Shown here: piece by piece, positions 926 to 60,180 of the stretch
Layout of the letters: each line of letters opens with the position of its first letter
How positions within the stretch are numbered: the first letter of the stretch is position 1
Made by a program: the position numbers and the translations under genes
NCBI GenBank assembly: GCA_964414895.1
Contig: CAYPXO010000002.1
Location: 35,211-99,210, forward strand
Direction: 5' to 3'
Source of the DNA: an uncultured Pseudomonadales bacterium
GTDB taxonomy: Bacteria > Patescibacteriota > Microgenomatia > UBA1400 > CAYNMC01
DNA: 64,000 bases
The notes under the pieces: model-generated
Database searches by the model: none
Seen by the model: only the letters and a program-made list of their open reading frames with translations
What the model was told of the DNA's origin: nothing

Positions 926-959
926 AGGGGTATTATATAATTTTTTTCTTCATCCGTCG

Positions 960-1700
960 AATTCCGGGACGGGGCCAGAAATTACTAATATAGCAGTAAT
1001 TATTAGCTATATTTTTTTATCCTGTTTACAACAAAGGCTTTAGAACCAAAAGCCTCTCTACTACCTTTCCATGGATTTAAATCTGAAAGGTCTAAATCAA
1101 CTCCTGCATAAACAAACTCAATGTAATCTTTTAAAGAAAATTCTGATTTGCCTATTAATCTCTCTATTTTCTCCTCATTAACAATTTTTGATTCTTTTCT
1201 CCCCACAATCTCAGCAAAACTGGAGTATGGGTAGCTAACAGGATCAGTTACTAACTTTGCTTTTACAGGATTGAGGTGAATATAGCGAGAAAGCTGTAAA
1301 AAATAGCTCTCTTTTTGAACGAGAATACTTTTATAACGATCCTCAAAAATGGGCCCTCTTCTTTCATTCTTCTTATTGAAGTAAACTCCATAGCTGGTTA
1401 GAAGCCTACTCATTATTTTTGCTAATGGGGTTTTATTTATCTCTATCAAAAAATGAAAATGGTTTGGTAAAAGCACATAAGAATAAACAATAAAATCTAA
1501 CTCCCTGTTTAAATCTCCAAATTTATTTAAGAATTTCAAGTAGTCACCTGTAGAGATAAAAATTTTTTGCTTATTTAAACCACGATTGTAGATATGATAA
1601 AAACCACCTTGATAAGTCAACCTTCTAGCTCTAGGCATCTAAGAAGAATATAGCCTTTTTAAACTGTTATGTCAAGCTTTTCTGCCCCCGTCCCAGGTGG
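960..1700 (-). mobile_element. RAYT/IS200-like transposon unit: Y1 transposase gene flanked by inverted GC-rich repeats
   Basis: CCGGGACGGGGCC at 964-976 and GCCCCCGTCCCAGG at 1684-1697 are reverse complements of each other (12/13 match) and bracket the transposase ORF. A tandem GTCCCAGGTGGAA x2 sits at 1690-1715. The unit is inserted in the ileS-ftsZ spacer. Confidence 0.6.
1003..1638 (-). CDS. REP-associated tyrosine transposase (RAYT, TnpA_REP / IS200-like Y1 HUH transposase)
   Basis: MPRARRLTYQGGFYHIYNRG...YVLLPNHFHFLIE (HuH motif)...RRGPIFEDRYKS...YIHLNPVKA...YPYSSF. Motif order and spacing match E. coli RayT/YafM-type TnpA_REP. Confidence 0.85.
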   Translation of the reverse strand: MPRARRLTYQGGFYHIYNRGLNKQKIFISTGDYLKFLNKFGDLNRELDFIVYSYVLLPNHFHFLIEINKTPLAKIMSRLLTSYGVYFNKKNERRGPIFEDRYKSILVQKESYFLQLSRYIHLNPVKAKLVTDPVSYPYSSFAEIVGRKESKIVNEEKIERLIGKSEFSLKDYIEFVYAGVDLDLSDLNPWKGSREAFGSKAFVVNRIKKYS

Positions 1701-1718
1701 AAGTCCCAGGTGGAAATA

Positions 1719-2873: not shown

Positions 2874-2902
2874 AACTTACTTATTTCTTGGGCAGGAGAA
2901 AT

Positions 2903-6054: not shown

Positions 6055-7132
6055 TATTAATTAGTATACCAACCGCTACCATCGCTACAACCAATGAAGA
6101 ACCTCCGTAAGAAATAAAGGGCAAAGGAATACCAGTAAGAGGCAAAAGAGAAACCATCGCCGAAAAATTAACAAAAGCTTGCAATCCCAGCCAAGTTGTT
6201 AAACTGCAAGCCAAAAGTTGCCCGAAGCGGTCTTTTGCCTGCCTAACAACTTTGAATCCCAAAAAAATCAATAAAAGATAAAAAAGAACTAAAAAGCTTG
6301 CGCCTAAAAAACCAACCTCCTCGGCAATAACGGCAAAAATAGAATCGGTAGTCGCCTCTGGCAAATATTGATATTTTTGCCGCGACTGTCCCAACCCTAA
6401 ACCCCAAAAACCCCCAGAGCCAAGAGCAATTAAAATCTGCTGCATATGATAAGATTTTCCCAGGGGATCCAAAGAGGGATCTAAAAAAGTCAAAATCCTA
6501 TTGCGTCGATACTCCGAGGAAAAAATCAAACCTAAACCTAGCAAAAGAGCAAAGAAGGAAAAGAAAAGTAATTTTTTAATTGGCGCCCCGGAAACAAAAT
6601 AAACAAAAAAAGCACTAGCAACAATGACCACTCCTGTTCCCAAATCCGGCTGAAGAATAAGCAAAAATAGTAAAACAAAAATTACTATTAAGAAAGGTAA
6701 AATCGGCCGCTTTTCTTCAAGCCAGGCCGCTAGATAAAGACTTAGGCAGAGCTTTAAAAGTTCCGAAGGCTGAAAACCAAGAAACTCCCTTCCTCCAAAG
6801 AAGTTTCCAAAACTAATCCATCGCCTAGCACCGGAAATCCTCACTCCGACCCCAGGGATTAAAACAATAAGTAAAAGAAAAAAATTAAAAACAAGTAAAG
6901 GTAGGGCAGCTATTTTTAATCTTTTATAATCAAAAAAAGAAGCTAAACTTAAGCCAAGAAATCCCACTCCTCCCCAAATTGCTTGATTGCGTAAAAAGTG
7001 ATATTTATTCCCAAAAATCCTATAGGATTCAAAACTGGAGGCATTATAAATCATTAAAAAACCCAAAAGAACCAAGCTTGCGACAAGAGATAAAAGGAAA
7101 AAGGGAAGATTTTTTTTGGTTTTTGCTTTCAT
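6038..7132 (-). CDS. ftsW: SEDS family lipid II polymerase FtsW
   Basis: Ten-TM profile with C-terminal LPLTGIPLPFISYGGSSL motif. The start is set at the internal MKAKTKK; the longer ORF to 7243 would overlap mraY. Confidence 0.85.
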   Translation of the reverse strand: MKAKTKKNLPFFLLSLVASLVLLGFLMIYNASSFESYRIFGNKYHFLRNQAIWGGVGFLGLSLASFFDYKRLKIAALPLLVFNFFLLLIVLIPGVGVRISGARRWISFGNFFGGREFLGFQPSELLKLCLSLYLAAWLEEKRPILPFLIVIFVLLFLLILQPDLGTGVVIVASAFFVYFVSGAPIKKLLFFSFFALLLGLGLIFSSEYRRNRILTFLDPSLDPLGKSYHMQQILIALGSGGFWGLGLGQSRQKYQYLPEATTDSIFAVIAEEVGFLGASFLVLFYLLLIFLGFKVVRQAKDRFGQLLACSLTTWLGLQAFVNFSAMVSLLPLTGIPLPFISYGGSSLVVAMVAVGILINIARQS

Positions 7133-7140
7133 TTTTAAGA

Positions 7141-8196
7141 TTAAATAATCGCCAACCAAATACCAAAAATGGCCAGCATAATTCCTGCCAGCCAAGTACG
7201 ACTGACAATTTTTGGCTCTTCCCAGCCAAGCAGTTGCAGCCACAAATGTAGAGGAGCTACCGGAAAGACCTTTTTCTTTCTAAACTTTTTAGACAAAAGT
7301 TGTATTAAGCTTGAAGCAACCTCAGCCACAAAAATACCACCAATTACCATTAAAGCCATCACCTTGCCTAGCAATAAAGCAACTACTGCTAGAGTAGCGC
7401 CAAAAGACAAAGAACCAACATCACCAAGCCAAACCCTAGCAGGATAAATATTAAAATAAAGAAAAGAAATCAAAGCACCCAGCCAAAGAGCCAAAAAAAT
7501 AGACAAAGGAGTGTCTAAAATCGCTGCCGATAAAAACCAAAAAACAAAAAGACAAATCATTAAAAGGCCCGAAGCCAAACCATCAAGTCCGTCAGTAATA
7601 TTAACCGCATTGGCAAAAGAAACTATCGTTAAAGCTGACAAAGGAACAAAAAACCAGCCCAGTTTTAACACCCCGTAAAAAGGAATATAAAAAATGTCAA
7701 TCTTTAAGTTTACATACAAAAGAATGCCAATAATCAAAGCCAAAATCCACTGGATTAAAAATTTATGCCTCAATCGCAACCCAAAAAAACCGGTTTGTGA
7801 AAAGCGAAAAAACTTCATTAAATCATCATAAAAACCAAGTAAAGCAAAAGAAACAAAGGTAAAAAAGATTATATTTACTTCTTCTTTAACAGAATAAATA
7901 TGAGTAGCTTCTACACCCAAAAAACTAAGAAGAGGGACCAAAAGGAAAAAGAGAATTCCTGTAGTAAAAATTATCAACAAGCCACCACCAACCGGCGTCC
8001 CTGCTTTGCCTTTGTGAAAACGGTCAAAAATAGGGGTTTTTTTTCCAAAAGCGTCTTTTGTTTTTTGCTGTTGTCTTAAAAATTTAAGCTTATACAAAAA
8101 ATCAATAAAAGGGACAATTAAAATACTGTTTACAATAAAAGAAAAAATAAGCAAACCTAATAGTAAAGCCATTGGGTTTTTCAAATCATCTGTCAT
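7141..8196 (-). CDS. mraY: Phospho-N-acetylmuramoyl-pentapeptide transferase MraY
   Basis: NAVNITDGLDGLA and DVGSLSFGA motifs; the start ATG lies inside the terminal arm of class I repeat copy A. Confidence 0.95.
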   Translation of the reverse strand: MTDDLKNPMALLLGLLIFSFIVNSILIVPFIDFLYKLKFLRQQQKTKDAFGKKTPIFDRFHKGKAGTPVGGGLLIIFTTGILFFLLVPLLSFLGVEATHIYSVKEEVNIIFFTFVSFALLGFYDDLMKFFRFSQTGFFGLRLRHKFLIQWILALIIGILLYVNLKIDIFYIPFYGVLKLGWFFVPLSALTIVSFANAVNITDGLDGLASGLLMICLFVFWFLSAAILDTPLSIFLALWLGALISFLYFNIYPARVWLGDVGSLSFGATLAVVALLLGKVMALMVIGGIFVAEVASSLIQLLSKKFRKKKVFPVAPLHLWLQLLGWEEPKIVSRTWLAGIMLAIFGIWLAII

Positions 8197-8294
8197 TCAT
8201 GGCTTACACCAGGAATCTATACGGATAAATCTATCTTTATAGATCCTGAATCCCCAGCACCATTCGGTGCGGGGCAGGCAAGTTCAGAATGACA
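8191..8294. repeat. Class I nested-palindrome (REPIN-like) element, copy A
   Basis: TGTCATTCATGG...CCAGGAATCTATAC...TATAGATCCTGAATC...GTTCAGAATGACA; fills the dgkA-mraY spacer. Confidence 0.7.
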
Positions 8295-8343
8295 AGGTAG
8301 TAACAAAATTCTAAATTGCCTTACCTACAGCTTAACTGCTATC

Positions 8344-8739: not shown

Positions 8740-9762
8740 TCAAAGCCTGCGCCACATCCTTCGTCCTGTCTCAAACAAAAAAACCGGCCAATAATTCCAT
8801 TTTAACGGCAAATCCTGCGCCGGTAAATAGGAAAAAGCCTGCCCCCCAAAACCCTTTTTAAAAAGAGTCACTCCGTAAAAACGATGTTTACGATCTTCTT
8901 TTAAGGTAATTCCCCAAAAATCATAAATAGCACAACCTCTCTTTTTTGCCTCTTTAATTGCTTCCCACTGAATTAAATAAGAAGCAGGAACTTTAGAGAA
9001 AGCCGATGAGGAAGCCGAGTAATGATAAACCGCCCTTTTTCCATAAAAAACAATCATTGCAATAGATAAAACTTTCCCTTTATAAATCGCTTTGAAAATT
9101 TTTATCTGGTCATCAGCGACAAAGGCTTTAAAATGGGCCTGAAGAAAATCAAAAGGAAAGGGGATAAAATTGTGTCTTTTGGCAGTCTCTTTTTGCAGTT
9201 TATACAAAATTTCCACATCTGTCTCTTTAACACTCTTAACTACTTTAACTTTTTCTTTGATTGCTTTCCTTATACAATACCTCGTTGTCTTGCGCATTTG
9301 ACTAAGCAAAGTCTTCTCATCCTTGGTAATATCTAAAATCCAAGTGTCTTGAGCATGAAGATGCATTGGTGCCGGCAAAAAGCCGGCTTTTTTAAACCTT
9401 CCTTTATTAGTTCTATCTCTAACAATCTGCGGTCTTACTCGAACAAAAAGACAGCCCTCTCTCTTTCCTGTTTCTTTTAAAAGCTGGACAAACTTTTCAA
9501 AACAGCTAGGCTCCTGCCAATTAATAATCGGCCCGCCCGGAGACTCTAAATAATTGCCTCTTTTTGCCTCCTGTTTTACCAAAAGAGCAACGCCCTGCAA
9601 ACTACTCCCTCTGTAAAAACCAAAGCGAAAAACTTTACGGCCCAAAAGCCGATGAGTTTCCCCCCAATTCCAAGACTGCAAAAAATTGCCCTGCTCTTTT
9701 TGCCCTAGAACAAAATCCTCCCAAAGCTTCTTATTTGTAATTTCTTCCGTCTGCAAATCCAT
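8740..9762 (-). CDS. FemAB-family peptidoglycan bridge aminoacyl transferase
   Basis: About 340 aa with two GNAT-like halves; KAVYHYSASS...WEAIKEAKKRG region typical of FemX/FemAB; dcw context. Confidence 0.65.
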   Translation of the reverse strand: MDLQTEEITNKKLWEDFVLGQKEQGNFLQSWNWGETHRLLGRKVFRFGFYRGSSLQGVALLVKQEAKRGNYLESPGGPIINWQEPSCFEKFVQLLKETGKREGCLFVRVRPQIVRDRTNKGRFKKAGFLPAPMHLHAQDTWILDITKDEKTLLSQMRKTTRYCIRKAIKEKVKVVKSVKETDVEILYKLQKETAKRHNFIPFPFDFLQAHFKAFVADDQIKIFKAIYKGKVLSIAMIVFYGKRAVYHYSASSSAFSKVPASYLIQWEAIKEAKKRGCAIYDFWGITLKEDRKHRFYGVTLFKKGFGGQAFSYLPAQDLPLKWNYWPVFLFETGRRMWRRL

Positions 9763-9827: not shown

Positions 9828-9962
9828 TTATTCTTCGAGCGGATCCCGAGCCTGCCTGCCGGCAGGCAGGTCTGTCAAGGGAGTAGTCGAGAAGTCTTCT
9901 CTAGTAGGGTTCTCGACTTTGCCCCGCACCGTCTGGTGCAGGGCTTCGCTCGAACAATAAAA
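9828..9962. repeat. Class II GC-rich TIR element, copy 1 (intergenic)
   Basis: TTATTCTTCGAGCG...CCTGCCTGCCGGCAGGCAGG...GTCGAGAAG/CTTCTCGAC...GCCCCGCACCgtctGGTGCAGGGC...CGCTCGAACAATAA; the ends are inverted repeats. Confidence 0.7.
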
Positions 9963-10031: not shown

Positions 10032-11291
10032 TTATCCATAAAACTTCTTCAAACAGCCAATTACCCTCTCAGCATCACTTAAACTCATTTTAGGATAAGT
10101 TGGCAGGTTTATCACTTTTTTGACTGCTCTCTCAGCGTTGGGACAACTGCCTAGCTTATAGCCAACCCTTTTCAAATTTGTTCCTTTAGGAGCAATTACT
10201 TTACTATACCAATTGCCCAAAATTATTTTTCTTTTTTTTGCAAATTTTAACAATTTTTCTTGTTTTTCAACCAATATGGGAAATCTTAAAAAAATAGGCC
10301 GGTAATCCTTTAACAATTTTGGAAATTGAATATTTTTCATACTTGATAAATTATTAATATAATATTGAGCAATTTTTGGTCTCTTTTTATTAAATTCTTC
10401 TAATTTATTAAACTGTTTAAGGAGTAAAGTTGCTAAACCATTGGGCAATTTTTTTGGATAATCTTTCAGCTTCTCACCAATCTTTTCCTTTCTTTTAACA
10501 GGAAAGTCAAGCAAGCCGATCTTCTGCATTAAAAATAAAATCCCCTTACCTAAACTAAATTTACCAATCCTAAAGCAAAAATAGGCAGGGATAACTAAAG
10601 AAAAAATAATCGGGTGGCCTAACTGTTTAAAAATCCAAAAACTGGAAGGAAAGTCAAGTTTTTGGTAAATTCTTTTCACTCTGGCGGCAAGAAATTTATC
10701 TCCGGTAATCAAAACTCCTCCAAAAACAGAAGAAATCACTTTATCTCTGCCAGAGGAAAAAAAAGCAAACTTTCCAAACTGACCAATTTTCTTTTTCCCG
10801 AAAGTCGCTCCTAAAGACTGAGCACAATCCTCTATTAAAATCAGTTTATGTTTTTTAGCAATCTTTAAAATCTTTTGTAAATCGTCGGGAATTCCAAAAA
10901 GATTTTGAACAATGATAGCTTTTGTCTTTGAGGTGATCTTCTTTTCTAAATCAACAACATCAAGAGAAAATGAATTTTTCCTAATATCGACAAAAACCGG
11001 TTTAAGGCCGGCAAAGCGAACACTATTAGCAACAACAACACAAGAAAAAGCCTGGAGAATAACTTCACTTCCCTTTGGTAAAGCTAAAGCCTGCAAACCA
11101 ACCTGCAAAGCTGAACGTCCGCTATTAAAAGAAAAAGCAAAAGGAACTTTAAAATACTCTTTAAATTTTTGTTCTATTTTTCCAATCGCTTCTCCTTTTT
11201 TCCAAGAAAAGGGAAAAAACAGCTGATTAACTGCCAAAAAAACATCATCCGGAAAGGTATTTGGAGATAGAGAGATGATAACAGGTTTCAT
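10032..11291 (-). CDS. DegT/DnrJ/EryC1/StrS-family PLP aminotransferase
   Basis: N-terminal fold-type-I aminotransferase core (GKIEQKFKEYF...FNSGRSALQVGLQAL...GSEVILQAFSCVVVANS...KPVFVDI). Confidence 0.65.
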   Translation of the reverse strand: MKPVIISLSPNTFPDDVFLAVNQLFFPFSWKKGEAIGKIEQKFKEYFKVPFAFSFNSGRSALQVGLQALALPKGSEVILQAFSCVVVANSVRFAGLKPVFVDIRKNSFSLDVVDLEKKITSKTKAIIVQNLFGIPDDLQKILKIAKKHKLILIEDCAQSLGATFGKKKIGQFGKFAFFSSGRDKVISSVFGGVLITGDKFLAARVKRIYQKLDFPSSFWIFKQLGHPIIFSLVIPAYFCFRIGKFSLGKGILFLMQKIGLLDFPVKRKEKIGEKLKDYPKKLPNGLATLLLKQFNKLEEFNKKRPKIAQYYINNLSSMKNIQFPKLLKDYRPIFLRFPILVEKQEKLLKFAKKRKIILGNWYSKVIAPKGTNLKRVGYKLGSCPNAERAVKKVINLPTYPKMSLSDAERVIGCLKKFYG

Positions 11292-17184: not shown

Positions 17185-17230
17185 AATTCCTCCTTATTAT
17201 TTAGTATATATAGTATACTGAATAATAAGC

Positions 17231-18145
17231 TCAACTTCTTAAACCAATAATAGAGGCAAATCTTCCCTCCACTTCTCCTTTCCTTAAAGCACGAAAGTGA
17301 GAAAAAAAACGCTTATTGCAAATCGTGCAAATCCCTGTATCTTCAATATTGCCTCTTTCTACACCAAAAGAAACAAGTTTGTCTGTTATAAAGGAAGCAA
17401 TATCTAAAGATTTAACGGGGATCCTTCGCGCGCCTGCAGCCAGGCAGGCAGGCTCAGGATGACGGTTTGATCTTAGTATGTACTGCTTCCATTCCGGCAA
17501 TTTCTCTTGAATATAATGGCTGTGGACAAAGCAACATTTCCTTGCTCCCGGCCCAATAACTACCTTAATGTTGACAGGTTGACAAGCAAATTTCTTCATC
17601 ATAATCAGCAAAGTTTCTAAAAAAATTTTCTCTACCGCCCCTCGCCAGCCAACATGAACAGCAGCAACCACTCGTTTCATAGGATCAAAAAACAAAAGAG
17701 GAAAACAATCAGCCGTTTTTACCATCAAAAAAATCCCCGGTTTATCACTAATCAAAGCGTCAACTTCAGAAATAATATTAGTTAAGTGGTTTCTTCTTCG
17801 AGCGAGTCTCGATTTTAATCGAGAGGAGTCGAGAAGCTCATCTGGAATATCTTGAAAAGTTCTTAACTTCTCCCTCTCCGCCTCTTTGGCGGATCGGGAA
17901 CCGCTCGAACAATAAAAAATCTTGTTTAAATCCTGATCATCTAAAACTCTAACCTTGCTTCCGTGAACCTGATCCATTTCAAAAAGAGTCTCTAAATCAA
18001 TTCCTAATTGTCTTGCCAATCTTTTTCTATTGCCTAAAACCTTTCCATCTTCCCCAAAACGAAGGTCAATATTTCCTGAAGCCTTATCAGAAATTCCACA
18101 AACAAGCTTTTCTTCTTTTTTAAAAATTTTAAAATTTTTAAGCAC
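17231..18145 (-). CDS. pgeF: Peptidoglycan editing factor PgeF/YfiH (DUF152) carrying two in-frame repeat-element insertions
   Basis: QVHGSKV...ADALISDKPGIFLMVKTADCFPLLF...AAVHVGWRG core motifs. 304 aa versus ~250 typical; the extra segments correspond exactly to class II element sequence. Confidence 0.7.
   Translation of the reverse strand: MLKNFKIFKKEEKLVCGISDKASGNIDLRFGEDGKVLGNRKRLARQLGIDLETLFEMDQVHGSKVRVLDDQDLNKIFYCSSGSRSAKEAEREKLRTFQDIPDELLDSSRLKSRLARRRNHLTNIISEVDALISDKPGIFLMVKTADCFPLLFFDPMKRVVAAVHVGWRGAVEKIFLETLLIMMKKFACQPVNIKVVIGPGARKCCFVHSHYIQEKLPEWKQYILRSNRHPEPACLAAGARRIPVKSLDIASFITDKLVSFGVERGNIEDTGICTICNKRFFSHFRALRKGEVEGRFASIIGLRS
17419..17465. repeat. Class II fragment (GATCC...GCCTGCCTGG.CAGGC) fused to a class I-like end (CTCAGGATGACGG), in frame in pgeF
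   Basis: ggatccttcgcgcgcctgcagccaggcaggcaggctcaggatgacgg; encodes RHPEPACLAAGARRIP. Confidence 0.6.
17791..17917. repeat. Class II GC-rich TIR element, copy 2, inserted in frame (126 bp, 42 codons) in pgeF
   Basis: TTCTTCTTCGAGCG...AGTCTCGATTTTAATCGAGAGG...CGCTCGAACAATAAAA; encodes FYCSSGSRSAKEAEREKLRTFQDIPDELLDSSRLKSRLARRR between the conserved VHG and ADAL motifs. Confidence 0.75.
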
Positions 18146-18893
18146 TTTTTTTAGTTAATCTTTCTTTCATAAGCTTATCGGCTATTCCTAATTCTTCTTT
18201 GGTATTAACACCATAAGCAACCAAGGGATCATCAATCTTAAAGATCTCCACTGAGAGATTGTTTTCTACCGCCAGCCTTGCTAAATCTGTTAAATAATAC
18301 TCACCACTGGGATTTTCTTTAATTTTAGGCAAAAATCTTCTTAAAAAAGAAAGTTTAAAAAGGTAAAGGCCAAGATTTAGTTCTTTTATTTTCTTTTGTT
18401 CTTTTGTGCAAAATCTCTCCTCGACAATTTCCTTAAATTTTCCTTTTTTATCCCTTAGTATTCGTCCATAGGCAAAATGTCTTGAAGGGATAACAGTTGC
18501 CACCGTCATTACCGCCTTTCTCTTTTGATGATCGTTAATTAACTTTTTTAAGGAATCAGGAGAATAAAAAGCACAATGATCACCATACATAACCAAAATG
18601 TCTTTTTCTTCGCTTTTCATTTTTTTGACGGCATCATAAACAGCAGCCCCGGTTCCCCACCTCTTTCCTTGTCTAACAAAAATAAGATTTTCTCCATTTA
18701 ATTTATTTTTAATTGAATCAACAGCAAAATTAACTACTATAAAAATGTCTTTTATTCCTACTTTTTTCAAGCTTTTTAACCCATAAGTTATCATTGGTTT
18801 GCCGGCAAGCTTCATTATCACTTTGTTTTTTCTCTGGCAATTTAGCCTTGTCCCTTTTCCTGCTGCCAGCACTACAGCGGCAAGCTTAACCAA
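18138..18893 (-). CDS. GlmU N-terminal-domain-like sugar-1-phosphate nucleotidyltransferase (start uncertain; TTG at 18893 proposed)
   Basis: VVLAAGKGTRL...KLAGKPMITYGL matches the GlmU pyrophosphorylase N-terminus; no LbH acetyltransferase domain. The upstream in-frame ORF to 19115 is class II element sequence. Confidence 0.6.
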   Translation of the reverse strand: MVKLAAVVLAAGKGTRLNCQRKNKVIMKLAGKPMITYGLKSLKKVGIKDIFIVVNFAVDSIKNKLNGENLIFVRQGKRWGTGAAVYDAVKKMKSEEKDILVMYGDHCAFYSPDSLKKLINDHQKRKAVMTVATVIPSRHFAYGRILRDKKGKFKEIVEERFCTKEQKKIKELNLGLYLFKLSFLRRFLPKIKENPSGEYYLTDLARLAVENNLSVEIFKIDDPLVAYGVNTKEELGIADKLMKERLTKKSA

Positions 18894-18934
18894 TTTTCTC
18901 TTTGAAAAATTGTCTTTTACAGGACTTACGCGCT

Positions 18935-19015
18935 TTATTCTTCGAGCGATCCCGGTGTAATACCGGGAGAGTCGAGAAGTTCTCGACTTCGCTGACGCTC
19001 CGCTCGAACAGTAAG
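18935..19015. repeat. Class II GC-rich TIR element, copy 3
   Basis: TTATTCTTCGAGCG-ATCCCGGTgtaatACCGGGA-GAGTCGAGAAGTTCTCGACTT-...CCGCTCGAACAGTAAG. Confidence 0.7.
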
Positions 19016-19045
19016 AAATACTGTGTAATTCCTGTTTCATATAAT

Positions 19046-20245
19046 TCATAAATTTCTTAAGGCCTTCTTGACTGCTTTGTGTTCTGACCAAGGATGTTCT
19101 TTTTCCCCAAAACACATTGACTGTTCGTGGCCCTTGCCAAAAAGAGTAACAATATCTCCTTTTTTAGCAAGCTTCCTAATAGCAAAATTTATTGCTTTTT
19201 GTCTATCTGCAATTTTACAAAGCTTTCTTTTATTTTTACATCCTGAAGCTATTTCTTCAATAATTTCCTTGACATTCTCAGTCCGTGGGTCCTCGGCCGT
19301 CAAAACCACCTTATCAGCCAATCGGCAAGCAATTTTCCCCATTGCTGGTCTTTTATAATGATCGCGCAAGCCAGCGCAACCAAAAATGGCAATTAACTTC
19401 CGATGAGAAAAAGTTCTTAAAGTTTTCAGAGCGTTCTTTAAAGCGTTAGGGGTATGAGCAAAATCAATAATCACCTTAAAATTCTTATCATAAACTTTCT
19501 CCATTCTTCCCTTAACTCCTTTGAATTGAGCAATAACCTTTCTAACAACAGGTTCTTTTACTTTAAGAATTTTAGCAACACTAATAGCGGCTAAACAATT
19601 AAGTCTGTTGTATTCTCCTGGCAAAGAAGTCTTAAAAGGAAACTTTTTTAAATTAAGATCACCTTTTTTTAAACCATAAGTAATAACTTTTCCCTTAGCG
19701 ATTTTTTTTAAATAGCCAAAAGACTTGTCTTCAATGTTTAAAACAGCAAACTTTGTCTTTTGAAATAATCGAGCCTTGGCTGACAAATAGTCTTGCCAAT
19801 TTCCATGATAATCTAAATGCTCGTCAGTCACATTTGTAACCACTCCTATATTAAAATTAACCCCAAGGAGACGGTGTTGATCCAAGCCATGGGAAGTTGT
19901 TTCTAAAATTATAAACTTAAATTTCCTATCGGCAATGCGGCGCAAAAGCTTCTGCAACTTACAAGAGTCTGGAGTAGTCACATGCAAGCCGGTGTCTAAA
20001 ACCTCCTCTCCAATTTTGGCACAAACACTGGTTATCAAAGCTACTCTTTTCCCTGCTTTTTTGAGAATTTCATAAATTAAAGTAGAAGTTGTTGTTTTCC
20101 CGTCTGTGCCAGTAACGCCAATAACAACCAAATTCTTAGCCGGATAGCGATAAAAAACAACCGCCAGAATAGAAATAGGGAGATGGTAAAAAGTATTAAC
20201 AAGCCAGTGAGGGATAAAATTTCGCAGAGTTTGTAAGAAAGACAT
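19046..20245 (-). CDS. murE: Mur ligase (MurE-like; MurD not excluded) lacking the usual N-terminal domain
   Basis: GVTGTDGKTTTSTL P-loop near the N-terminus, NVTDEHLDYHG and Y..AKARLF motifs; position between ftsI and murF/mraY. Confidence 0.65.
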   Translation of the reverse strand: MSFLQTLRNFIPHWLVNTFYHLPISILAVVFYRYPAKNLVVIGVTGTDGKTTTSTLIYEILKKAGKRVALITSVCAKIGEEVLDTGLHVTTPDSCKLQKLLRRIADRKFKFIILETTSHGLDQHRLLGVNFNIGVVTNVTDEHLDYHGNWQDYLSAKARLFQKTKFAVLNIEDKSFGYLKKIAKGKVITYGLKKGDLNLKKFPFKTSLPGEYNRLNCLAAISVAKILKVKEPVVRKVIAQFKGVKGRMEKVYDKNFKVIIDFAHTPNALKNALKTLRTFSHRKLIAIFGCAGLRDHYKRPAMGKIACRLADKVVLTAEDPRTENVKEIIEEIASGCKNKRKLCKIADRQKAINFAIRKLAKKGDIVTLFGKGHEQSMCFGEKEHPWSEHKAVKKALRNL

Positions 20246-20287: not shown

Positions 20288-20313
20288 TGTTTGCCTGCCT
20301 GCCGGCAGGCAAA
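20288..20313. repeat. Isolated perfect GC palindrome GTTTGCCTGCCTGCCGGCAGGCAAAC (class II core) between ftsI and the Mur ligase
   Basis: 26-bp perfect hairpin sharing the GCCTGCCGGCAGGC core. Confidence 0.7.
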
Positions 20314-20344
20314 CCTAAACCCATTTTCTGATTAACTTATTATA

Positions 20345-23125: not shown

Positions 23126-23288
23126 TCCGAAAACTCTTCCTCCCTTTAATAAAATTTCTAAAGCGTGGCCGGCACTGCCAATAGTGACATCAATGTAAAG
23201 CCAGCCAGGCTTAACACTTAGGTAACTTATTGCTTCTTTTAAAAGAGCAGGCTGATGGAACTGGCTAAAATCTTCGGAAATTATTCAT

Positions 23289-23362
23289 TGTCATTCCTGG
23301 CTCGACCAGGAATCTATACAAATAATTACTGTTATAGATTCCGCATCAAGTGCGGAATGACA
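23289..23362. repeat. Class I nested-palindrome (REPIN-like) element, copy B (mraZ-rsmH spacer)
   Basis: TGTCATTCCTGGctcgaCCAGGAATCTATACAaataattacTGTTATAGATTCCGCAtcaagTGCGGAATGACA. Confidence 0.75.
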
Positions 23363-23374
23363 AGGAAAAACAAC

Positions 23375-34280: not shown

Positions 34281-34286
34281 AAAAAT

Positions 34287-34345
34287 ACCGGGCGGGTCAC
34301 GACCCGCCCCTACTGTAGGGGCGGCCGGTCGGGGGCCCGGCAACA
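34287..34345. repeat. GC-rich tandem hairpin island
   Basis: GGGCGGGTCacGACCCGCCC (9-bp stem), GCCCCTActgTAGGGGC (7-bp stem), GGCCGGTCGGGGGCCCGG. Confidence 0.6.
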
Positions 34346-34350
34346 ACACG

Positions 34351-41241: not shown

Positions 41242-42336
41242 TTAATTATCAGTAGTCTTCTGCAAAACCCTTATTGTCTTTTTGGCACATTTCTCCCAAG
41301 AGAATTTTTTTACTTGCTGCAAACCTTTTTTTATTAAATTATTCCTTTCCCTTTGCTTTGATTTTAACATCTTTGACAAACTTTTATAAATCGAATTATC
41401 AGAATAAGGGTTTTCAATATAAACCGCCGCCTCCCCTGCCACCTCAGGCAGGGAAGAAGTCTTGCTGGTTACAACCGGACAGCCGGCTGCCATTGCTTCA
41501 AGCACTGGTATGCCAAAGCCTTCATAGAGTGAAGGGTAAACAAAGCATAAGGCATTCTTTAATAAAGCTTGTTTTTCTTTTTCGCTGACAAAACCGGTAA
41601 AAATAACTTCTTTTTCTAAACCTAACTGTTTTACTTTATTAAATATCTCTTTGTAAAGCCAACCCTTCTTTCCAGCTATTACTAATTTAGTATTTAGGGA
41701 TAAGTATTTAGTATTTAGGGAAGCGAAAGCTTCTATAAGACGAGTGAGGTTTTTTCTGGGCTGGAGAGTGCCGAGGTAAAGAAGATAATTGCTAGCTGGT
41801 AGCTTTTTAAATTCATTCTTTATTCTTGATTCTTTATTCTTGATTCTTTTACTTAGTCCCGGATAAGTAACGGTAATTTTCTCCTCCGGATAATCATAAA
41901 AATGGATAATCTCCTTTTTAGTAAACTCTGAGATGGTAAAAATATGAGCCGCTTTTTTAATTGAATACCTTGTCCAGTTTTTTAGCTGCCAAAGATCGCT
42001 CTTTTTAAACTGCTCAGGAAAACGCCAGAAAGCTAAATCCATAATAGAAATCACCCTTGGGCAAGAAGAAAACCGAGGAGCATAATGACCCGGAGTAAAA
42101 AATAAATCCGGTTTAGGCCGCAAAAAGAATAATTCCAAAGGCAGCCGCCACTGCGTCCACCATAACCCCGGCCGCAAAACCTTATATCGCCACCAACCTG
42201 TCTCTTTAGGTAAATCATCTAAAAGTTTATCTTTCAAAAAAATTTTGAATTTTAAACTGCAATCCTGCCTGCCGGCAGGCAAGGTTTTAATTTTTAATTT
42301 TTCATTTTTAATTTGTCTATATATTTCCCACAACAA
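41242..42336 (-). CDS. Glycosyltransferase family 4, paralog a (tandem duplicate of 42515-43693)
   Basis: C-terminal half identical to paralog b (YLLYLGTLQPRKNL...EGFGIPVLEAMAAGCPVVTSKTSSLPEVAGEAAV). Confidence 0.75.
   Translation of the reverse strand: MLWEIYRQIKNEKLKIKTLPAGRQDCSLKFKIFLKDKLLDDLPKETGWWRYKVLRPGLWWTQWRLPLELFFLRPKPDLFFTPGHYAPRFSSCPRVISIMDLAFWRFPEQFKKSDLWQLKNWTRYSIKKAAHIFTISEFTKKEIIHFYDYPEEKITVTYPGLSKRIKNKESRIKNEFKKLPASNYLLYLGTLQPRKNLTRLIEAFASLNTKYLSLNTKLVIAGKKGWLYKEIFNKVKQLGLEKEVIFTGFVSEKEKQALLKNALCFVYPSLYEGFGIPVLEAMAAGCPVVTSKTSSLPEVAGEAAVYIENPYSDNSIYKSLSKMLKSKQRERNNLIKKGLQQVKKFSWEKCAKKTIRVLQKTTDN
41682..41721. repeat. 21-bp tandem duplication TAAGTATTTAGTATTTAGGGA x1.9
   Basis: Encodes the duplicated KYLSLNT in the GT4-a interdomain linker. 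Confidence 0.75.
41814..41848. repeat. Heptanucleotide tandem array (ATTCTTK)x5
   Basis: attctttattcttgattctttattcttgattcttt; encodes RIKNKESRIKNE. Confidence 0.75.
42263..42283. repeat. Class II core palindrome CCTGCCTGCCGGCAGGCAAGG inserted in frame near the GT4-a N-terminus
   Basis: Encodes LPAGRQDCS; paralog b has NCNA at the homologous position. Confidence 0.7.
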
Positions 42337-44546: not shown

Positions 44547-46011
44547 AACCGACTCCGGGAAAATCGACTGTTTGATTCAAGGAAAAACCACTATCACCCA
44601 ACCAGCCTGTTGCCTTTTGGTCTGGATCAGTCATTCCCGAAAGATACTGAAAGAGAAAAACCTGCTTCTTACTTGGAACTATTTCCTTTAAAAACAAAGA
44701 AATCTTCTCTCCTTTCTCAAAAATTCCCCTCGCTTCAAGGTTTCTTCTTTGATAATAACTCCAAGGCCCAAATGGAGAAGAAAACTCAAAAAGAACTAAA
44801 CTCTTGTCGCCACTTGCCTTATCTTCCACCCAAGAGACTGCCTGACGCCATTGTTCTCTTTGAAACTGAGAGTCAAAATAATATCTCCCCAAACTAAAAA
44901 AATTAATCGTCAAAACCAAACCTACTGCCAACTTCTGCCATTTTTTTTCTAAAGTAAAAACACCCATTGATAACAACAAATAAAAGAAAGGCAAAGTTAA
45001 AAGCAACCTTTTTGGGGCAATAACCGGCACAAAAAAAGATAACAAAAAAGCCCCAAAAACCGGCACTAAAAAAAAGCTTAAAACAATAAAAGCCTTTCTT
45101 CTCTCTTTTCTCCAGCTTCTTATAACAAGAAAAGAGAAGAAAAGAAATAATAAAAAGGCTAAAAAACCATAAAAAAATTTATTTTCAAAACTGGTATTTC
45201 CTATCCAAAATTTAGTTAATACTAAAGGTACTGCTTTTAATAAAGGAGTTGCCACACTAACTTTCCAGAGAGGAAAAATGGCTGCCCAACCTCGACCAAT
45301 CGCTAATTGTTTAAAAAACATCGGCAGCCAAGGCAAAAAAACAAAAAAGCTCAAAGCCAAATTCACCAGCCAATTTGATAATTTATCTTTGTAGAAAAGT
45401 AAAATAATTAAAAATTGAGTAATAAAAATGAAAGGAAAAAAATATAGACTATATAGTCCAGCGATATTGACTAATACAAAAGGGGCAAAAATTCTATAAA
45501 TATGAAAGGAACTGTCCCTAATAAAAAACTTCAAAAAGAAATAAAAAGAGGCAGTTGCTAAAAAACAAGATAACATATAGGGTCTGAATTCTTGGGAATA
45601 GTAAATATGAAAAGGAGAAGTTGCTAAAAAAAGACTAGAGAGCAAAGCGATTTTCTTATTAGTCAATTTCTTAGCAAACAAAAAAACAAACCAAATCGAT
45701 CCCAATCCTAAAAAGACCGGTAATAATCTTGACCACCATTCAGTTTGTGATATCTTTAACCAAAGCCAAGCTAAATAATGGAAAAGCGGCGGGTGAAAGT
45801 CGGCTGGGATTCGCCAAACCTGCCAAAAAGAAACCTTTGATTCCAAAACTTGAATTGCCTCATCAAGCCAAAAGGACTGGTTAATAGCAATTAGGCGCAA
45901 AAATAAAGCCAGAAACAGGATCAAATAAAACACTTCTACTTTTTTTATTGTTCGAGCAAATCTCGATCCGGCTGCGCCGGAGAGAGAGCAGTCAAGAACT
46001 ACTGCCAACAA
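44524..46011 (-). CDS. GT-C fold membrane glycosyltransferase (PMT_2/ArnT-like); the true start probably lies downstream of the ORF-track ATG
   Basis: FWLDEAIQVLE...FHPPLFHYLAW motif region, about 12 TM helices; the first ~20 codons are class II element sequence. Confidence 0.55.
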   Translation of the reverse strand: MLAVVLDCSLSGAAGSRFARTIKKVEVFYLILFLALFLRLIAINQSFWLDEAIQVLESKVSFWQVWRIPADFHPPLFHYLAWLWLKISQTEWWSRLLPVFLGLGSIWFVFLFAKKLTNKKIALLSSLFLATSPFHIYYSQEFRPYMLSCFLATASFYFFLKFFIRDSSFHIYRIFAPFVLVNIAGLYSLYFFPFIFITQFLIILLFYKDKLSNWLVNLALSFFVFLPWLPMFFKQLAIGRGWAAIFPLWKVSVATPLLKAVPLVLTKFWIGNTSFENKFFYGFLAFLLFLFFSFLVIRSWRKERRKAFIVLSFFLVPVFGAFLLSFFVPVIAPKRLLLTLPFFYLLLSMGVFTLEKKWQKLAVGLVLTINFFSLGRYYFDSQFQREQWRQAVSWVEDKASGDKSLVLFEFSSPFGPWSYYQRRNLEARGIFEKGEKISLFLKEIVPSKKQVFLFQYLSGMTDPDQKATGWLGDSGFSLNQTVDFPGVGFVYEYRK

Positions 46012-46065
46012 AACTTCTCGACTTCGCCCCGCACCGAATGGTGCAGGCTTCGCTCGAAGAATAAG
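45946..46065. repeat. Class II GC-rich TIR element, copy 4
   Basis: TTATTGTTCGAGC...CTTCTCGACTTC-GCCCCGCACCgaatGGTGCAGGC-TTCGCTCGAAGAATAAG. Confidence 0.7.
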
Positions 46066-46084: not shown

Positions 46085-46921
46085 CTAATAATAGCCTTTA
46101 AACAATATCTTCTCCAATAAACCAACAAATGAACCAAAATCAAAAACAATTTTAAAAATTAAAAACTCCGCTTTATTAAACCAAACTGCTTTAAAAAAAC
46201 TAATTATTAAAGAAATCGGTAAAAAAGATTTAAGCAGATGAAAAAAATCGCCTAACACTCCCCCTTTATATTTTCTTTTTGCCCGCCATTTGGCTTGAAA
46301 GAAAACCTCTCTTAAATTCTCCGGATTATAATGATAATAGAAAGCTCCTTTGGCCAAACTAGCTTTGTAACCTAGTTTTTCACTCAAACTCCAGTCATCG
46401 GTGTAGCCAGTTTTTTCAAAGCCGCCTGCTTTGAGAAACTCAGATTTTAAAATCGCCCGAAAAACTGGCGAACGGTTGGGATAATTTCTAGGGATTTTTC
46501 TTTTATTCTTAAGCCCAAAATTATAGTTCCAGCATTTTGCCCAAAGATTGCTCCAGTTGGCCACATATTCATCTTTAGAAAAAGTCCCTTTAACCCTTCC
46601 TTGTTTAATTGGTTGAATTAGATTTTTAATAAAATTTTTATCAAAAACCATATCACTATCAACAAAAACTAAAATCTCTCCTTTTGCCTGTTTGGCTCCC
46701 AAATTCCTCGCCGCCCCCGCACCCTTATGTTTCTGTCTAAAAATTGAAAATTGAAAATTGAAAATTGAAAATTCTGACAAAATATCTGATATTTTGTCAG
46801 TGCTCCCATCATCAATTACAACAATTTCCAAGTCTTTAAAAGTCTGTTTTTTTAAACTTTCAAGGCACTCTGGCAAATATCTATATTTATTATAAACAGG
46901 AATAATTACGGAAACTTTCAC
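46085..46921 (-). CDS. Glycosyltransferase family 2; carries an in-frame (GAAAATT)4.5 array
   Basis: MKVSVIIPVYNKYRYL...VVIDDGSTD. Confidence 0.75.
   Translation of the reverse strand: MKVSVIIPVYNKYRYLPECLESLKKQTFKDLEIVVIDDGSTDKISDILSEFSIFNFQFSIFRQKHKGAGAARNLGAKQAKGEILVFVDSDMVFDKNFIKNLIQPIKQGRVKGTFSKDEYVANWSNLWAKCWNYNFGLKNKRKIPRNYPNRSPVFRAILKSEFLKAGGFEKTGYTDDWSLSEKLGYKASLAKGAFYYHYNPENLREVFFQAKWRAKRKYKGGVLGDFFHLLKSFLPISLIISFFKAVWFNKAEFLIFKIVFDFGSFVGLLEKILFKGYY
46738..46773. repeat. Heptanucleotide tandem array (GAAAATT)x4.5
   Basis: aaaattgaaaattgaaaattgaaaattgaaaattc; encodes EFSIFNFQFSIF. Confidence 0.85.
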
Positions 46922-54854: not shown

Positions 54855-54905
54855 AAGGTGACATTTTGTTTTAACATTGCTATAGGACGCCAAGCTCTCA
54901 AAGAA

Positions 54906-56883: not shown

Positions 56884-58662
56884 CTAGGAAGTTTTTTTAA
56901 AGATCAAAAAAGCAAGGCAAGAAAAAGCAGCAATGGAAAGCAAGTCGGCAAATAAACGCAACTTTGTCTCTCCAAATTTCAACTTAACTTGAAATTCTCC
57001 TGCCGGTGCAGAAAACAAAACCAAACCTTTGGATTTTTTAAAGTCCTTTAGATTTTCTTTTACTTCTTCCGTTAATTCTCTTCCATCAACAAACAACCGC
57101 CAGCCAGGATAATAATAGTTGTGAATCAAAATTTCTGATTTTTGTCTGCAAGCAAGATTAAAAGAAATTAAATTGCTTTTTTGTAAAAGTTTTTCCACTC
57201 GGCAATCACCCTGGTTAATTTCAACTTTTTGCTCTGGCGGTAGCTGGTATGGTTTTTTTCTTGCCCAGCGAGGAATATATTCATTCCAACCGCTGCCTAC
57301 CCAATAATAAGTCTTAAAATAGTTATCCGGATAGTCAATGGTGTCATTAATACGCAAATGATTGCGATTACCATAAAAAGCAAGAATTAAAAGCATCATA
57401 GAAGCAAAAATTAAAAACTTTCTCTCTTTTAAATTAGCAATCAGCCAACCAGACAAAAAAGCGGCTGTAAAAACGGAAAGAGCCAAAAAGCGCCAAGGAG
57501 TATCTACCTTTTGTAGTGGAGAAAAAAGAACCCAAATCGGCTTGGAAATCTCAAGCATTAAAAAGATTGAAAGAAAAAAATTAAAGAGAAGAATAATAAT
57601 AAGGCTTAAGTTTTTTCGCTTATTTTTCTTTTTTATTATAAAGTATATATAGTATACAGGAGTACACTTAATAATAAGAAAAATGCTTAGAAAAACTGCT
57701 AGCCATTGGGCAATTCCAATTCTTAAGGTCAGATCATTACCAAAGCCCGGCGCTCCATAGCCCCAAGGCGAATAGAGGAGTTTTTTAAAAGAAACAAATT
57801 GGTCATAATTGGCAGAAACAATCTCTGTGTAGTAAGTGTAAGCAGCTTCCCAAACGGCAGGGATTAAATAAAAACTACAAATTCCCACCGCCAGCAAAAT
57901 GGCAACCAGCCACCGTTTTATTATCCTTTTTTTCTTTTTTGAATAACTAACTAGCCAAAAAGAGAATAAAAACCAAAGAGGAAAGAAAATAACCAAAGTT
58001 ATCAAATGAGAAAGAATCAAACCAGCCAAAGCAAAAACAAGAGCGACAAAATTTTTCTTTGTCGATTTTTTGGAAAACCGAAAGACAAAAAGAAAAACTA
58101 AAGGAACAAAAGCAAAGCCAACTGCTTCCCCTAGAGAGGCAGTCACAAAAATCTTGACAAAGCGATAAGGAGCCCAAGACCAAAGAATGCTAGAGACAAA
58201 AGCGGCCCAACTGTTCTTAAAAAGCTCTCTTGCCAAAAAATACATTCCCAAAGCAGAAGTAAAATAGGAAAAAACAATAACCAGCTTAACCGATTCGGCC
58301 AAATTAAAACCAGCAAAATGAAAGCCTTCGGCCAGCCAGTAAGGCAAAGGATAGGCAAAAATAAAAACCGGGTAACCTCTAGTGCCGGAAAACTGGCCGG
58401 CCCAGCGAGGAGGAAACTGGCCTTCTTTTAAAATACGATCAAATTCATAAAGCCTGGCCAGGTGTGACTGTCCATCATGGGAAGTATAAAATTTCGGCCC
58501 CCAAAGATCTTTAAGAGCAAAAAGAGATATAACAAAAATTGCAACAATCAACAATAAATTTATTCCTTTTTTCACTTTTTTAAGGTATAGATAAAACAAA
58601 TAATAATTATTGTTCGAGCCCTGCCTGCCGGACGGGCAGGCAGGCAGGCGTGTCGAGAACAT
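56884..58662 (-). CDS. Large polytopic membrane protein, GT-C-like (YfhO/ArnT-like); the N-terminus reads through a class II element
   Basis: More than 12 TM helices, HDGQSHLARLYEFDR motif; the first ~20 codons (MFSTRLPACPSGRQGS) are element sequence. Confidence 0.4.
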   Translation of the reverse strand: MFSTRLPACPSGRQGSNNNYYLFYLYLKKVKKGINLLLIVAIFVISLFALKDLWGPKFYTSHDGQSHLARLYEFDRILKEGQFPPRWAGQFSGTRGYPVFIFAYPLPYWLAEGFHFAGFNLAESVKLVIVFSYFTSALGMYFLARELFKNSWAAFVSSILWSWAPYRFVKIFVTASLGEAVGFAFVPLVFLFVFRFSKKSTKKNFVALVFALAGLILSHLITLVIFFPLWFLFSFWLVSYSKKKKRIIKRWLVAILLAVGICSFYLIPAVWEAAYTYYTEIVSANYDQFVSFKKLLYSPWGYGAPGFGNDLTLRIGIAQWLAVFLSIFLIIKCTPVYYIYFIIKKKNKRKNLSLIIILLFNFFLSIFLMLEISKPIWVLFSPLQKVDTPWRFLALSVFTAAFLSGWLIANLKERKFLIFASMMLLILAFYGNRNHLRINDTIDYPDNYFKTYYWVGSGWNEYIPRWARKKPYQLPPEQKVEINQGDCRVEKLLQKSNLISFNLACRQKSEILIHNYYYPGWRLFVDGRELTEEVKENLKDFKKSKGLVLFSAPAGEFQVKLKFGETKLRLFADLLSIAAFSCLAFLIFKKTS

Positions 58663-58696
58663 CGGAATTTGAACTTCCCGATTTCACTCGAAGAGT
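58608..58696. repeat. Class II GC-rich TIR element, copy 5
   Basis: TTATTGTTCGAGCC-CTGCCTGCCGGACGGGCAGGCAGG-CGTGTCGAGAAC...CACTCGAAGAGTAAAA. Confidence 0.7.
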
Positions 58697-58715
58697 AAAA
58701 TTCTATTAGTCTTGT

Positions 58716-60167: not shown

Positions 60168-60180
60168 TTCCTTCTTTTCT

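Follow-up and report, generated by a model that had tools for sequence, protein, structure and literature searches.

A stretch of 64,000 nucleotides (hereafter the window; contig CAYPXO010000002.1 of GenBank assembly GCA_964414895.1, positions 35,211 to 99,210, recorded as an uncultured Pseudomonadales bacterium) carries at five places a short GC-rich sequence bounded by inverted repeats, and this locus raises the question of what these repeats are, whether they move, and by what means. The probability that the five copies belong to a family of small (50–170 bp), non-coding, non-autonomous mobile palindromic repeats is put here at roughly 70%. Copies of the family are gained and lost between related genomes, and orthologous copies keep four conserved blocks while their hairpin modules are exchanged; copies sit between co-directional genes or in frame within genes, and old intragenic copies decay into ordinary coding sequence. 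The family is notable for blocks that are invariant across several labelled phyla, for its circular permutability, and for in-frame insertion in housekeeping genes of reduced genomes.

Conserved Blocks and Variable Hairpins of the Window Copies

All five copies are present where they had originally been predicted from the sequence alone. The ends of each copy are TTATTCTTCGAGCG ... CGCTCGAACAATAA, and the terminal inverted repeats of the prediction are confirmed as a 14-bp repeat with one constant C/G mismatch, the TA-flanked end form TTATT[C/G]TTCGAGCG being common to the five copies of 80–135 bp. Read inward, one end of every copy has C at the mismatched position and the other end G, which orients the copies, copies 1–3 as plus and copies 4 and 5 as minus. 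The 10-mer TTSTTCGAGC occurs exactly 8 times in the window against 0.18 expected from shuffles, and the remaining two of the ten ends are versions with 1–2 mismatches. Between the ends, the order in each copy (alignment A1) is variable hairpin A, the inner block AGTCGAGAAG, a loop of 0–25 nt across window copies, the inner block GTTCTCGACT, and variable hairpin B; the copies align on these four conserved blocks and are thus not unrelated sequences. The predicted modular interior and its named hairpins also stand: the module CCTGCCGGCAGG has 3 occurrences in the window compared with 0.03 expected, and GCCCCGCACC-N4-GGTGC is found at three window loci compared with 0.01 expected. The GC content is 46–56% in the five copies and 34–36% in their flanks, as had been noted in general terms, and single-strand folding of both strands gives a four-way junction in 5/5 copies, with z from −3.2 to −7.9.

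Copy 1 (9828..9962, plus, 135 bp) is canonical and complete, with TA on both sides and a four-way fold of z −7.0/−7.9; it lies between a DegT-type aminotransferase open reading frame (ORF; 10032..11291, minus) and a FemAB ORF (8740..9762, minus). Its parts are the end block at 9831–9840, hairpin A at 9841–9885 with the nested palindrome CCTGCCGGCAGG at 9855–9866, the inner block at 9886–9894, the loop at 9895–9908, the second inner block at 9909–9917, hairpin B at 9918–9947, and the end block at 9948–9957. Copy 2 (17791..17916, plus) is 126 bp long, that is 42 codons, and runs stop-free and in frame within the PgeF/YfiH ORF, where it is read on the minus strand as the peptide YCSSGSRSAKEAEREKLRTFQDIPDELLDSSRLKSRLARRRN; its right inner block is mutated to GTTCTTAAC and its left flank is TC, not TA. 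Copy 3 (18935..19014, plus) is a compact form of 80 bp, its central loop being absent, between a MurE-like ORF (stop at 19046) and the probable start of the NTP-transferase gene, and a mechanical ORF (18138..19115) reads through it. Copy 4 (45946..46065, minus, 120 bp), opposite in orientation to copies 1–3, lies between a glycosyltransferase ORF (46085..46921) and a PMT_2 ORF; it contains a mechanical TTG start at 46011, and its hairpin GCCCCGCACCGAATGGTGC (46026–46044) is identical to a hairpin at 8257–8275. Copy 5 (58608..58698, minus, about 90 bp) lies between two membrane-protein ORFs and contains a mechanical ATG at 58662; its left half is intact (TTGTTCGAGC, a GCCTGCC palindrome, GTCGAGAAC) and its right half degenerate (CTTCCCGAT ... 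ACTCGAAGAG), which corrects the original description of five full copies. Four of the five copies stand between co-directional genes, copy 2 being intragenic, and the orientations (3 vs 2) are without strand bias.

The window itself has a GC content of 36%, with nearly all genes on the minus strand; a cell-division and cell-wall cluster (FtsI, Mur ligases, PgeF, FemAB, DegT) is followed by many glycosyltransferases. In a protein search, the closest named relatives of the window PgeF are from Patescibacteria (Beckwithbacteria, Woykebacteria, and "Patescibacteria group"), and the best non-self identity is 47%; the host is therefore probably a bacterium of the candidate phyla radiation (CPR) without a close relative in the collections.

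Filled and Empty Sites in Related Genomes

Filled and empty sites can be compared in several related genomes. L118, a locus of another assembly, has the same gene order as the window (FtsI-MurE-NTP-transferase-PgeF-MurC), its gaps measuring 22, 1, and 19 nt and its PgeF 249 aa; the gap orthologous to copy 3 is the one of 1 nt. It can be seen from these short gaps and the shorter PgeF that four window sites, those of copies 2 and 3 and of two isolated hairpins, are empty in L118, and no member of the family was found there within 20.7 kb.

The patescibacterial locus L061 carries in-frame copies: a Mur-ligase ORF has one, and a DegT-FemAB protein, a natural fusion as shown by 89 homologues, has three. 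At the FemAB site, the copy amounts to exactly 26 inserted residues, which neither the 70%-identical protein P0061 of locus L120 nor any other aligned homologue has. P0061 shares the other two copies, identically placed and oriented; in these all four blocks are unchanged and the hairpins and loops replaced, while the coding flanks are about 73% identical. In the more distant relatives P0088 and P0089, a decayed in-frame remnant is kept. Window copy 1 and an L061/L120 copy both lie at the DegT/FemAB boundary, in opposite orientation and with different hairpins. Among Omnitrophota, a permuted unit present in L041 is absent from the 92%-identical L076, where stop and start codons overlap, and L020 and L053 differ in presence, the same gaps holding this family or another palindromic family. 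The insertions are derived, not ancestral. Strict synteny in all relatives had been named as a finding that would speak for an ancient structural feature; the L118, L061/L120, L041/L076, and L020/L053 comparisons show that the copies are not strictly syntenic, and, since they are also related to one another, they form a proliferating, inverted-repeat-bounded family.

The effect on a host protein can be followed in PgeF, the peptidoglycan editing factor (17231..18145, minus), which carries copy 2 and a second in-frame GC hairpin. The window protein has 304 aa compared with about 240–250 aa in its homologues (n = 58), and the alignment shows two extra segments, unique to the window protein, that coincide with copy 2 and with the solo hairpin. 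The copy 2 insertion, of 42–45 residues, is absent from 58/58 homologues. The solo hairpin, a degenerate GCCTGCC...GGCAGGC palindrome at 17414..17459, encodes the peptide PEPACLAAGARRIP, which is likewise absent from PgeF homologues. Every homologue-invariant column is kept, including His61, Cys147, and His164. In the AlphaFold model, the core has a predicted local distance difference test (pLDDT) score of 85–98, the copy 2 insert scores about 51 and is predicted as a helical hairpin, and residues 230–237 score below 50; the fold of the host PgeF is thus predicted to be preserved despite both inserts, which are modelled as low-confidence excursions.

Half-Elements, Permutation, and Distribution

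A collection of species-representative genomes was scanned for the exact 21 specified bases of the half-element described below. This search returned at least 115 loci, of which about 8 matches are expected by chance on our own estimate; at least about 105 loci look real, in at least about 51 assemblies. Nine of the matches were set aside as chance, all being from high-GC genomes and without a TA flank. The counts of half-elements, canonical copies, and assemblies by label given in this section rest on loci among the matches listed (at least 115).

The repeating unit of the family is a half-element, TA - TT[C/G]TTCGAGC(G) - variable GC-rich palindromic hairpin - (A)GTCGAGAA[G/C], in which the hairpin measures 0–60 nt (median 22). 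The 305 half-elements include 55 canonical tail-to-tail pairs, 65 head-to-head permuted pairs, and 73 solos, and the variable base of the end block is complementary to the last inner-block base in 299/305 (C..G 168, G..C 131). The canonical TA-flanked inverted-repeat element, the form present in the window, is two half-elements tail to tail; head-to-head pairs are joined across TA or TA-N-TA and make up a circularly permuted unit that is common in Omnitrophota. Polarity is constant throughout: a C..G-type half, a spacer, an inverted G..C-type half, TA, and the repeat of the series. Both arrangements fold into the same four-helix junction. In one Omnitrophota locus, a permuted unit occupies each of four successive gaps of a type IV pilus operon. 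Because the half-element also occurs solo and permuted, the organisation is closer to that of repetitive extragenic palindromic (REP) sequences and bacterial interspersed mosaic elements (BIME) than to that of a simple miniature inverted-repeat transposable element (MITE).

The 53 canonical copies measure 50–171 bp; 16/53 lie inside long ORFs and 51/53 have TA on both sides. Before the end block the bases are T (97%) and A (94%), preceded by A or T, while the inner side is without a conserved flank. Abutting units share a single TA, nested modules are bounded TA...TA, and junctions such as TATTAATA read as TA + TT + AA + TA and resemble excision footprints. Both orientations relative to genes occur. 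In CPR genomes, in-frame copies within genes are frequent. The frame used within genes is mostly TAT TCT TCG AGC (Y-S-S-S), or Y-C-S-S on the other strand.

The hairpins of the half-elements fold better than shuffles (median z −2.5). G-U-type pairs number 71 on one strand and 73 on the other, with an energy difference of 0.3 kcal/mol, so the hairpins behave as DNA palindromes and not as oriented RNA; the same figures were rejected as evidence for a strand-specific RNA structure. The compensatory base changes that had been claimed between copies do not hold up as such either, most of them being the replacement of a whole palindromic module and not point covariation. Hairpin modules are common to different phyla and to a second repeat family of the window.

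Counted by record label, 16 assemblies are Omnitrophota, in which several copies within 8 kb are frequent, 19 are Patescibacteria of many lineages, and 9 are third-party metagenome-assembled genomes (MAGs) named "uncultured Gammaproteobacteria/Pseudomonadales", labels that are doubtful; singletons or a few come from Elusimicrobia, WOR-3, Stahlbacteria, "Actinomycetota", "Nanoarchaeia", and one unclassified "bacterium". An identical 23-nt hairpin is found in one doubtful "Gammaproteobacteria" MAG and in a Roizmanbacteria copy. The presence of identical blocks and shared hairpin modules in both Patescibacteria and Omnitrophota implies that the family has spread horizontally among uncultivated bacteria that occur together. 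As for vehicles, blastn gave no match to the family in PLSDB plasmids or INPHARED phages; viral carriage was considered and rejected, the single match in 2.9 million viral contigs being a chance one (60% GC, no TA flank).

Possible Means of Movement and Alternative Explanations

For the mobile family set out above, an enzyme encoded elsewhere in the genome would move the copies in trans. Tentatively, and with the odds somewhat against it, this mover may be a TA-targeting cut-and-paste transposase of the IS630/Tc1-mariner type that uses either inverted block pair as ends; it would insert copies at W-TA-W sites, and these would persist only where harmless, in an intercistronic spacer or, if in frame and free of stops, in a surface loop that tolerates them, like the palindromic elements of Rickettsia. 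The use of either block pair as ends would inter-convert the canonical and permuted forms via tandem arrays. TA-targeting cut-and-paste fits the invariant TA, the single shared TA of abutting units, the nested TA...TA modules, and the TATTAATA-type junctions. The element had originally been named a Class II one: a proliferating, non-coding, modular family bounded by inverted repeats is borne out, while the name in the sense of a DDE cut-and-paste transposon is not, no transposase having been found and the flanking TA being no more than a candidate target-site duplication.

Several observations weigh against the mobile-repeat reading or against its proposed mover. No autonomous copy or transposase with family ends was found in about 840 kb of flanks, in a pattern search that could not span a full-length insertion sequence (IS), and all-against-all clustering of the 1351 ORFs of the loci showed no enriched neighbour family, only housekeeping families, each at no more than 7 loci, as befits a non-autonomous family. 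The sole exact intragenic comparison of a filled with an empty site adds 78 nt, which equals the 74-nt element together with its two TAs; with a 2-bp duplication the addition should be 76 nt, and this case therefore disagrees with TA duplication. In comparisons with distant homologues, gap sizes are variable. The lengths of intragenic copies are 0 or 2 mod 3 and never 1, the class that a 2-bp duplication requires; this argument is weak, since in the frame most often used a copy of 1 mod 3 would be read with the flanking TAA as a codon. The presence or absence of permuted units (L041 vs L076) involves neither TA flanks nor a clean duplication, and solo half-elements are common, whereas a simple two-ended MITE model predicts neither solos nor permuted gain and loss. 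The invariance of the four blocks between L061 and L120, despite flanks of about 73% identity, could reflect selection for function rather than selfish persistence. Finally, the taxon labels come from MAG records, and some are doubtful ("uncultured Gammaproteobacteria", phyla with a single locus).

It is possible, though rather unlikely, that the half-elements are REP-like palindromes of the REP/BIME (REPIN) type, processed as single-stranded hairpins and spread by a once-per-genome Y1 HUH transposase, either a REP-associated tyrosine transposase (RAYT) or an IS200-like one. The organisation described above speaks for this, with two half-element variants (C..G and G..C) that are always opposed, alternating head-head and tail-tail linkers, solos, pairs, and arrays, and a position mostly between co-directional genes. 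The only transposase-like genes met near copies are, moreover, of the Y1_Tnp kind: an IS200-like Y1 gene (PF01797) lies in the window at 1003..1638 (minus), with homologous Y1 genes near family copies in L061, L120, L114, and L018. The window gene is flanked by the inverted GC-rich repeats CCGGGACGGGGCCAG (963–978) and CTGCCCCCGTCCCAGG (1682–1697), which occur nowhere else in the window, an arrangement as in RAYTs. However, the Y1 flanks, where examined (window and L061), carry their own unrelated hairpins, the L061 gene being flanked by the direct repeat TATAACGATCCCGTATCGTTAA; the hairpin, which is the part read by Y1 enzymes, is variable in this family while its flanks are conserved; and five Y1 genes in about 840 kb are hardly, if at all, more than CPR genomes would have anyway. 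Extragenic position and lineage specificity characterise REP families, whereas copies here are also intragenic and have the same sequence across phyla; nor do the window copies show a strand bias.

An unlikely reading, set apart from both of these, is that the selected unit is not a pair of transposon ends but the circularly permutable four-helix junction of the four invariant blocks itself, a structured signal found across phyla. One possibility under it is that a structure-specific enzyme of a new class of mobile elements reads and moves the junction; another is that the junction acts as an orientation-independent element between cistrons or on DNA in ultrasmall bacteria. In either case, mobile modules would exist on a second level, that of the exchangeable GC hairpins.

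A host-selected structural cis-element, with spread secondary to a function, is quite unlikely. The permutable four-way junction could then serve in RNA, for intercistronic processing, mRNA stabilisation, or insulation and in either orientation, or in DNA, as a binding site for nucleoid or replication factors. Its four helices are the same with either the end helix or the inner helix left open, and circular permutation of this kind is, in known ribozymes, a sign of selection on the fold. The blocks do not vary from phylum to phylum, nor between orthologous copies whose hairpins have been replaced, nearly every intercistronic gap of the Omnitrophota pilus operon holds one unit, and different palindromic families stand at the same gaps in related species, as if some hairpin were needed there. 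Since the element is alike on both strands, its random orientation is no argument against a role in RNA. Yet a syntenic relative lacks any copy, its genes abutting or overlapping, and in-frame copies are found decaying inside enzymes; conservation lies in the helices, not in the junction or loop nucleotides, and neither strand has an excess of G-U-type pairs. No T-tail of an intrinsic terminator is present at any of the five copies (0/5), only the isolated hairpins at 20289–20314 and 42266–42281 weakly qualifying as terminators. Rfam 15 gave no gathering-score match in the whole window and, at E up to 5, no relevant one over copies 1–3, and ARAGORN found no tRNA.

That the repeats are site-specific recombination sites, such as attC-like cassette boundaries or dif-like cores served by a tyrosine or serine recombinase, with the bracketed genes as cassettes, is very improbable and largely refuted. 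Genes of Omnitrophota are individually bracketed by inverted half-elements, and the abutting ends GCTCGAACAA-TA-TTCTTCGAGC resemble inverted arms around a short asymmetric spacer. However, the 14 bracketed genes are all housekeeping ones in conserved operon order (PilB/C, MraY, FtsA, TrpRS, S1, LeuA among them), no integrase family is found repeatedly beside copies, GTTCTCG lacks the RRR of the attC core GTTRRRY, the inner blocks are separated by anything from 0 to more than 20 nt, and copies lie inside ORFs. Chance similarity, or an artefact of assembly or contamination, as might arise from mis-joined repeats in metagenome assemblies, is extremely improbable in view of the 8 exact end 10-mers against 0.18 expected, the 100% match of an independent Logan unitig to copy 2 and part of copy 3, the in-frame copies within otherwise conserved proteins, and the presence of the family in at least about 51 independent assemblies.

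Comparison with Known Repeat Families

The family shows the behaviour of Rickettsia palindromic elements (RPE), the organisation of REP/BIME, and the outward features of TA-flanked MITEs, and it fails a defining feature of each. According to the summary given in PMC10969869, RPEs are in-frame selfish palindromes (Ogata et al. 2000). Both are palindromic repeats of about 100–150 bp in a reduced, AT-rich genome, in frame and stop-free in unrelated housekeeping genes, where they are translated as extra surface segments, and both also occur in intergenic positions and without a known transposase. The present family differs in its hosts, which are Patescibacteria, Omnitrophota, and others rather than Rickettsia; in its modular build, with variable hairpins between four invariant blocks; in its TA flanks and its circularly permuted and solo forms; and in its conserved peptide, which is limited to what the invariant blocks dictate (YSSS.., ..ARTI). 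NCBIfam includes RPE domain models, and by a peptide search of this database the family is unrelated to RPEs, the RPE DNA itself lying outside the comparison; the peptides encoded by the elements matched no NCBIfam model at E up to 10.

With the REP/BIME/REPIN sequences of Enterobacteria and Pseudomonas, the family shares a short imperfect palindrome in two opposed variants with alternating head-head and tail-tail linkers, the occurrence of solos, doublets, and arrays, a position between co-directional genes, and a content that varies among strains or species. Unlike them, its conserved part is the flanks of the hairpin and not the stem, it is also found inside ORFs (PgeF, Mur ligase, DegT-FemAB) and is thus not strictly extragenic, its sequence spans phyla, TA is invariant at the head-head junction, and the Y1 genes of the window and L061 are flanked by repeats unrelated to it.

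Small size, lack of coding capacity, multiple copies, terminal inverted repeats, and insertion polymorphism between related genomes are the characters of a MITE, and all are found here. TA-flanked MITEs, such as the Correia elements of Neisseria and those derived from IS630/Tc1-mariner elements (e.g., Nezha), are likewise non-coding, multi-copy, and 50–170 bp long, with terminal inverted repeats, TA at both ends, either orientation, and read-through into neighbouring ORFs. The differences are that no parent IS was found for this family and one exact case disagrees with TA duplication, that the inner pair of inverted blocks can also act as the outer ends, and that the interior is pieced together from exchangeable hairpins which another repeat family has too.

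The pneumococcal BOX element (boxA-boxB-boxC) is similar in its modular build, with conserved terminal modules and internal modules variable in number and kind, in its stable folds and intergenic copies, and in that the mobilising enzyme has been identified for neither. BOX is restricted to one genus, and its sequence is not known to be related; nor is it known to have TA-flanked inverted ends or in-frame intragenic copies at this frequency. In the literature searched, no paper prints the end sequence, and none connects repeats of the MITE, REP, or RPE type with CPR or Omnitrophota. The family is a previously undescribed member of the MITE / REP-BIME / RPE-like selfish DNA and not a new category.

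Consequences for Annotation, Assembly, and Reduced Genomes

Because of the elements, ORFs are called too long and false start codons arise, as three examples in the window show, and real enzymes are lengthened by segments of 26–45 residues; masking of the family would improve the annotation of MAGs. In CPR and Omnitrophota, assemblies from short reads are interrupted precisely at the repeats. The Logan unitig L117 (window 17199–18998) contains copy 2 and part of copy 3 at 100% identity and ends inside copy 3, and the unitig L121 (window 1–8275 plus 2.2 kb) breaks inside the hairpin at 8257–8275; no further copy was found in its 2.2 kb beyond the window start. Breaks of these independent unitigs of the source run exactly at repeats are what multi-copy DNA in the sample would be expected to give, and the repeats therefore fragment short-read assemblies.

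CPR genomes, small and streamlined, generally have the reputation of containing little mobile DNA. In the present case, selfish DNA lies in frame within housekeeping genes of reduced genomes (PgeF, Mur ligase, DegT-FemAB, and a TsaD-like gene), and the intragenic copies, long retained and slowly becoming coding sequence, amount to the RPE phenomenon of Rickettsia in an unrelated radiation. The shared blocks of 10–11 nt and the hairpin modules offer a sequence marker of DNA exchange among co-occurring uncultivated bacteria, many of them from groundwater, and the half-element and permutation structure, with no enzyme found in the flanks, leaves room for an undescribed transposition system.

Isolated Hairpins and Other Repeats

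Hairpin modules of the family also stand alone in the window. The two isolated hairpins already pointed out are real: TTTGCCTGCCTGCCGGCAGGCAAA (20288..20316) lies between the FtsI and MurE-like genes, where the orthologous L118 gap is 22 nt, and TCCTGCCTGCCGGCAGGCAAGG (42257..42283) lies upstream of a glycosyltransferase gene. Two others had been missed, the solo hairpin of PgeF at 17414–17459 and the module GCCCCGCACC-GAAT-GGTGC (8251..8280, read on the minus strand). The latter is embedded in a member of a second repeat family (about 8190–8296), from which it follows that hairpin modules are shared between families.

This second family is found in the window at 8190–8296, 23281–23370, 54742–54864, 60176–60296, and 61984–62082, and also in L061 at 7110–7190. 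Its ends are TGTCATTC/TGTCATCC ... GAATGACA, with interior modules such as CCAGGAATCTATA / TATAGATTCCTG; the GC hairpin modules it has in common with the present family are GCCCCGCACC..GGTGC at 8251–8280 and CTCCGCCAGCTGGCGAAC at about 62040–62062.

Of the three start codons said to fall within copies or related GC islands, those at 46011 and 58662 are indeed inside copies 4 and 5, while the third, a mechanical GTG start at 34349, lies in a GC island without the conserved blocks of the family. This island (34284–34351) measures 68 bp with about 75% GC, has two GC hairpins (GGGCGGGTCACGACCCGCCC and another), and stands exactly at the junction of two glycosyltransferase ORFs.

In Omnitrophota, relatives of 83–92% identity differ by insertions of several unrelated palindromic families (L041 1065–1224 and 4191–4305, and the L020/L053 gaps), orthologous gaps being filled by different families in each species; one such insertion is in frame in an IF-2-like gene (peptide ...VGEGLKPSPTK...). 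The DegT homologues P0088 and P0089 have, at columns 100–131 of alignment A3, the further repeat-derived peptide insertions NPHPNPLPKGEGRDEGGYG and PNRHSGEPELVEGGSRISNGKKRFSARQNDE, which suggests that CPR proteins are commonly interrupted by several such families.

Tandem heptamer arrays of the kinds (AAATTGA)x4, (TTGACAC)x4, and ATTTTGA-type occur in the window at 37415–37443, 44491–44519, and 46741–46769; at 40345–40372 and 44413–44440; and at 15521–15552, 33641–33692, and 43500–43551. A heptamer-related palindrome, AACTTGACACTT...AAGTGTCAAGTT, stands on both sides of a permuted unit at the Omnitrophota locus L030 (4094–4131 and 4237–4274). Near the end of the window, at about 61900–62620, gene orientation changes from minus to plus and the GC skew changes sign; the 700-bp gap there holds nested inverted repeats (62130–62275) and a truncated NTP-transferase-like ORF fragment (about 62358–62520), and this could be a replication origin or terminus, or a point of rearrangement.

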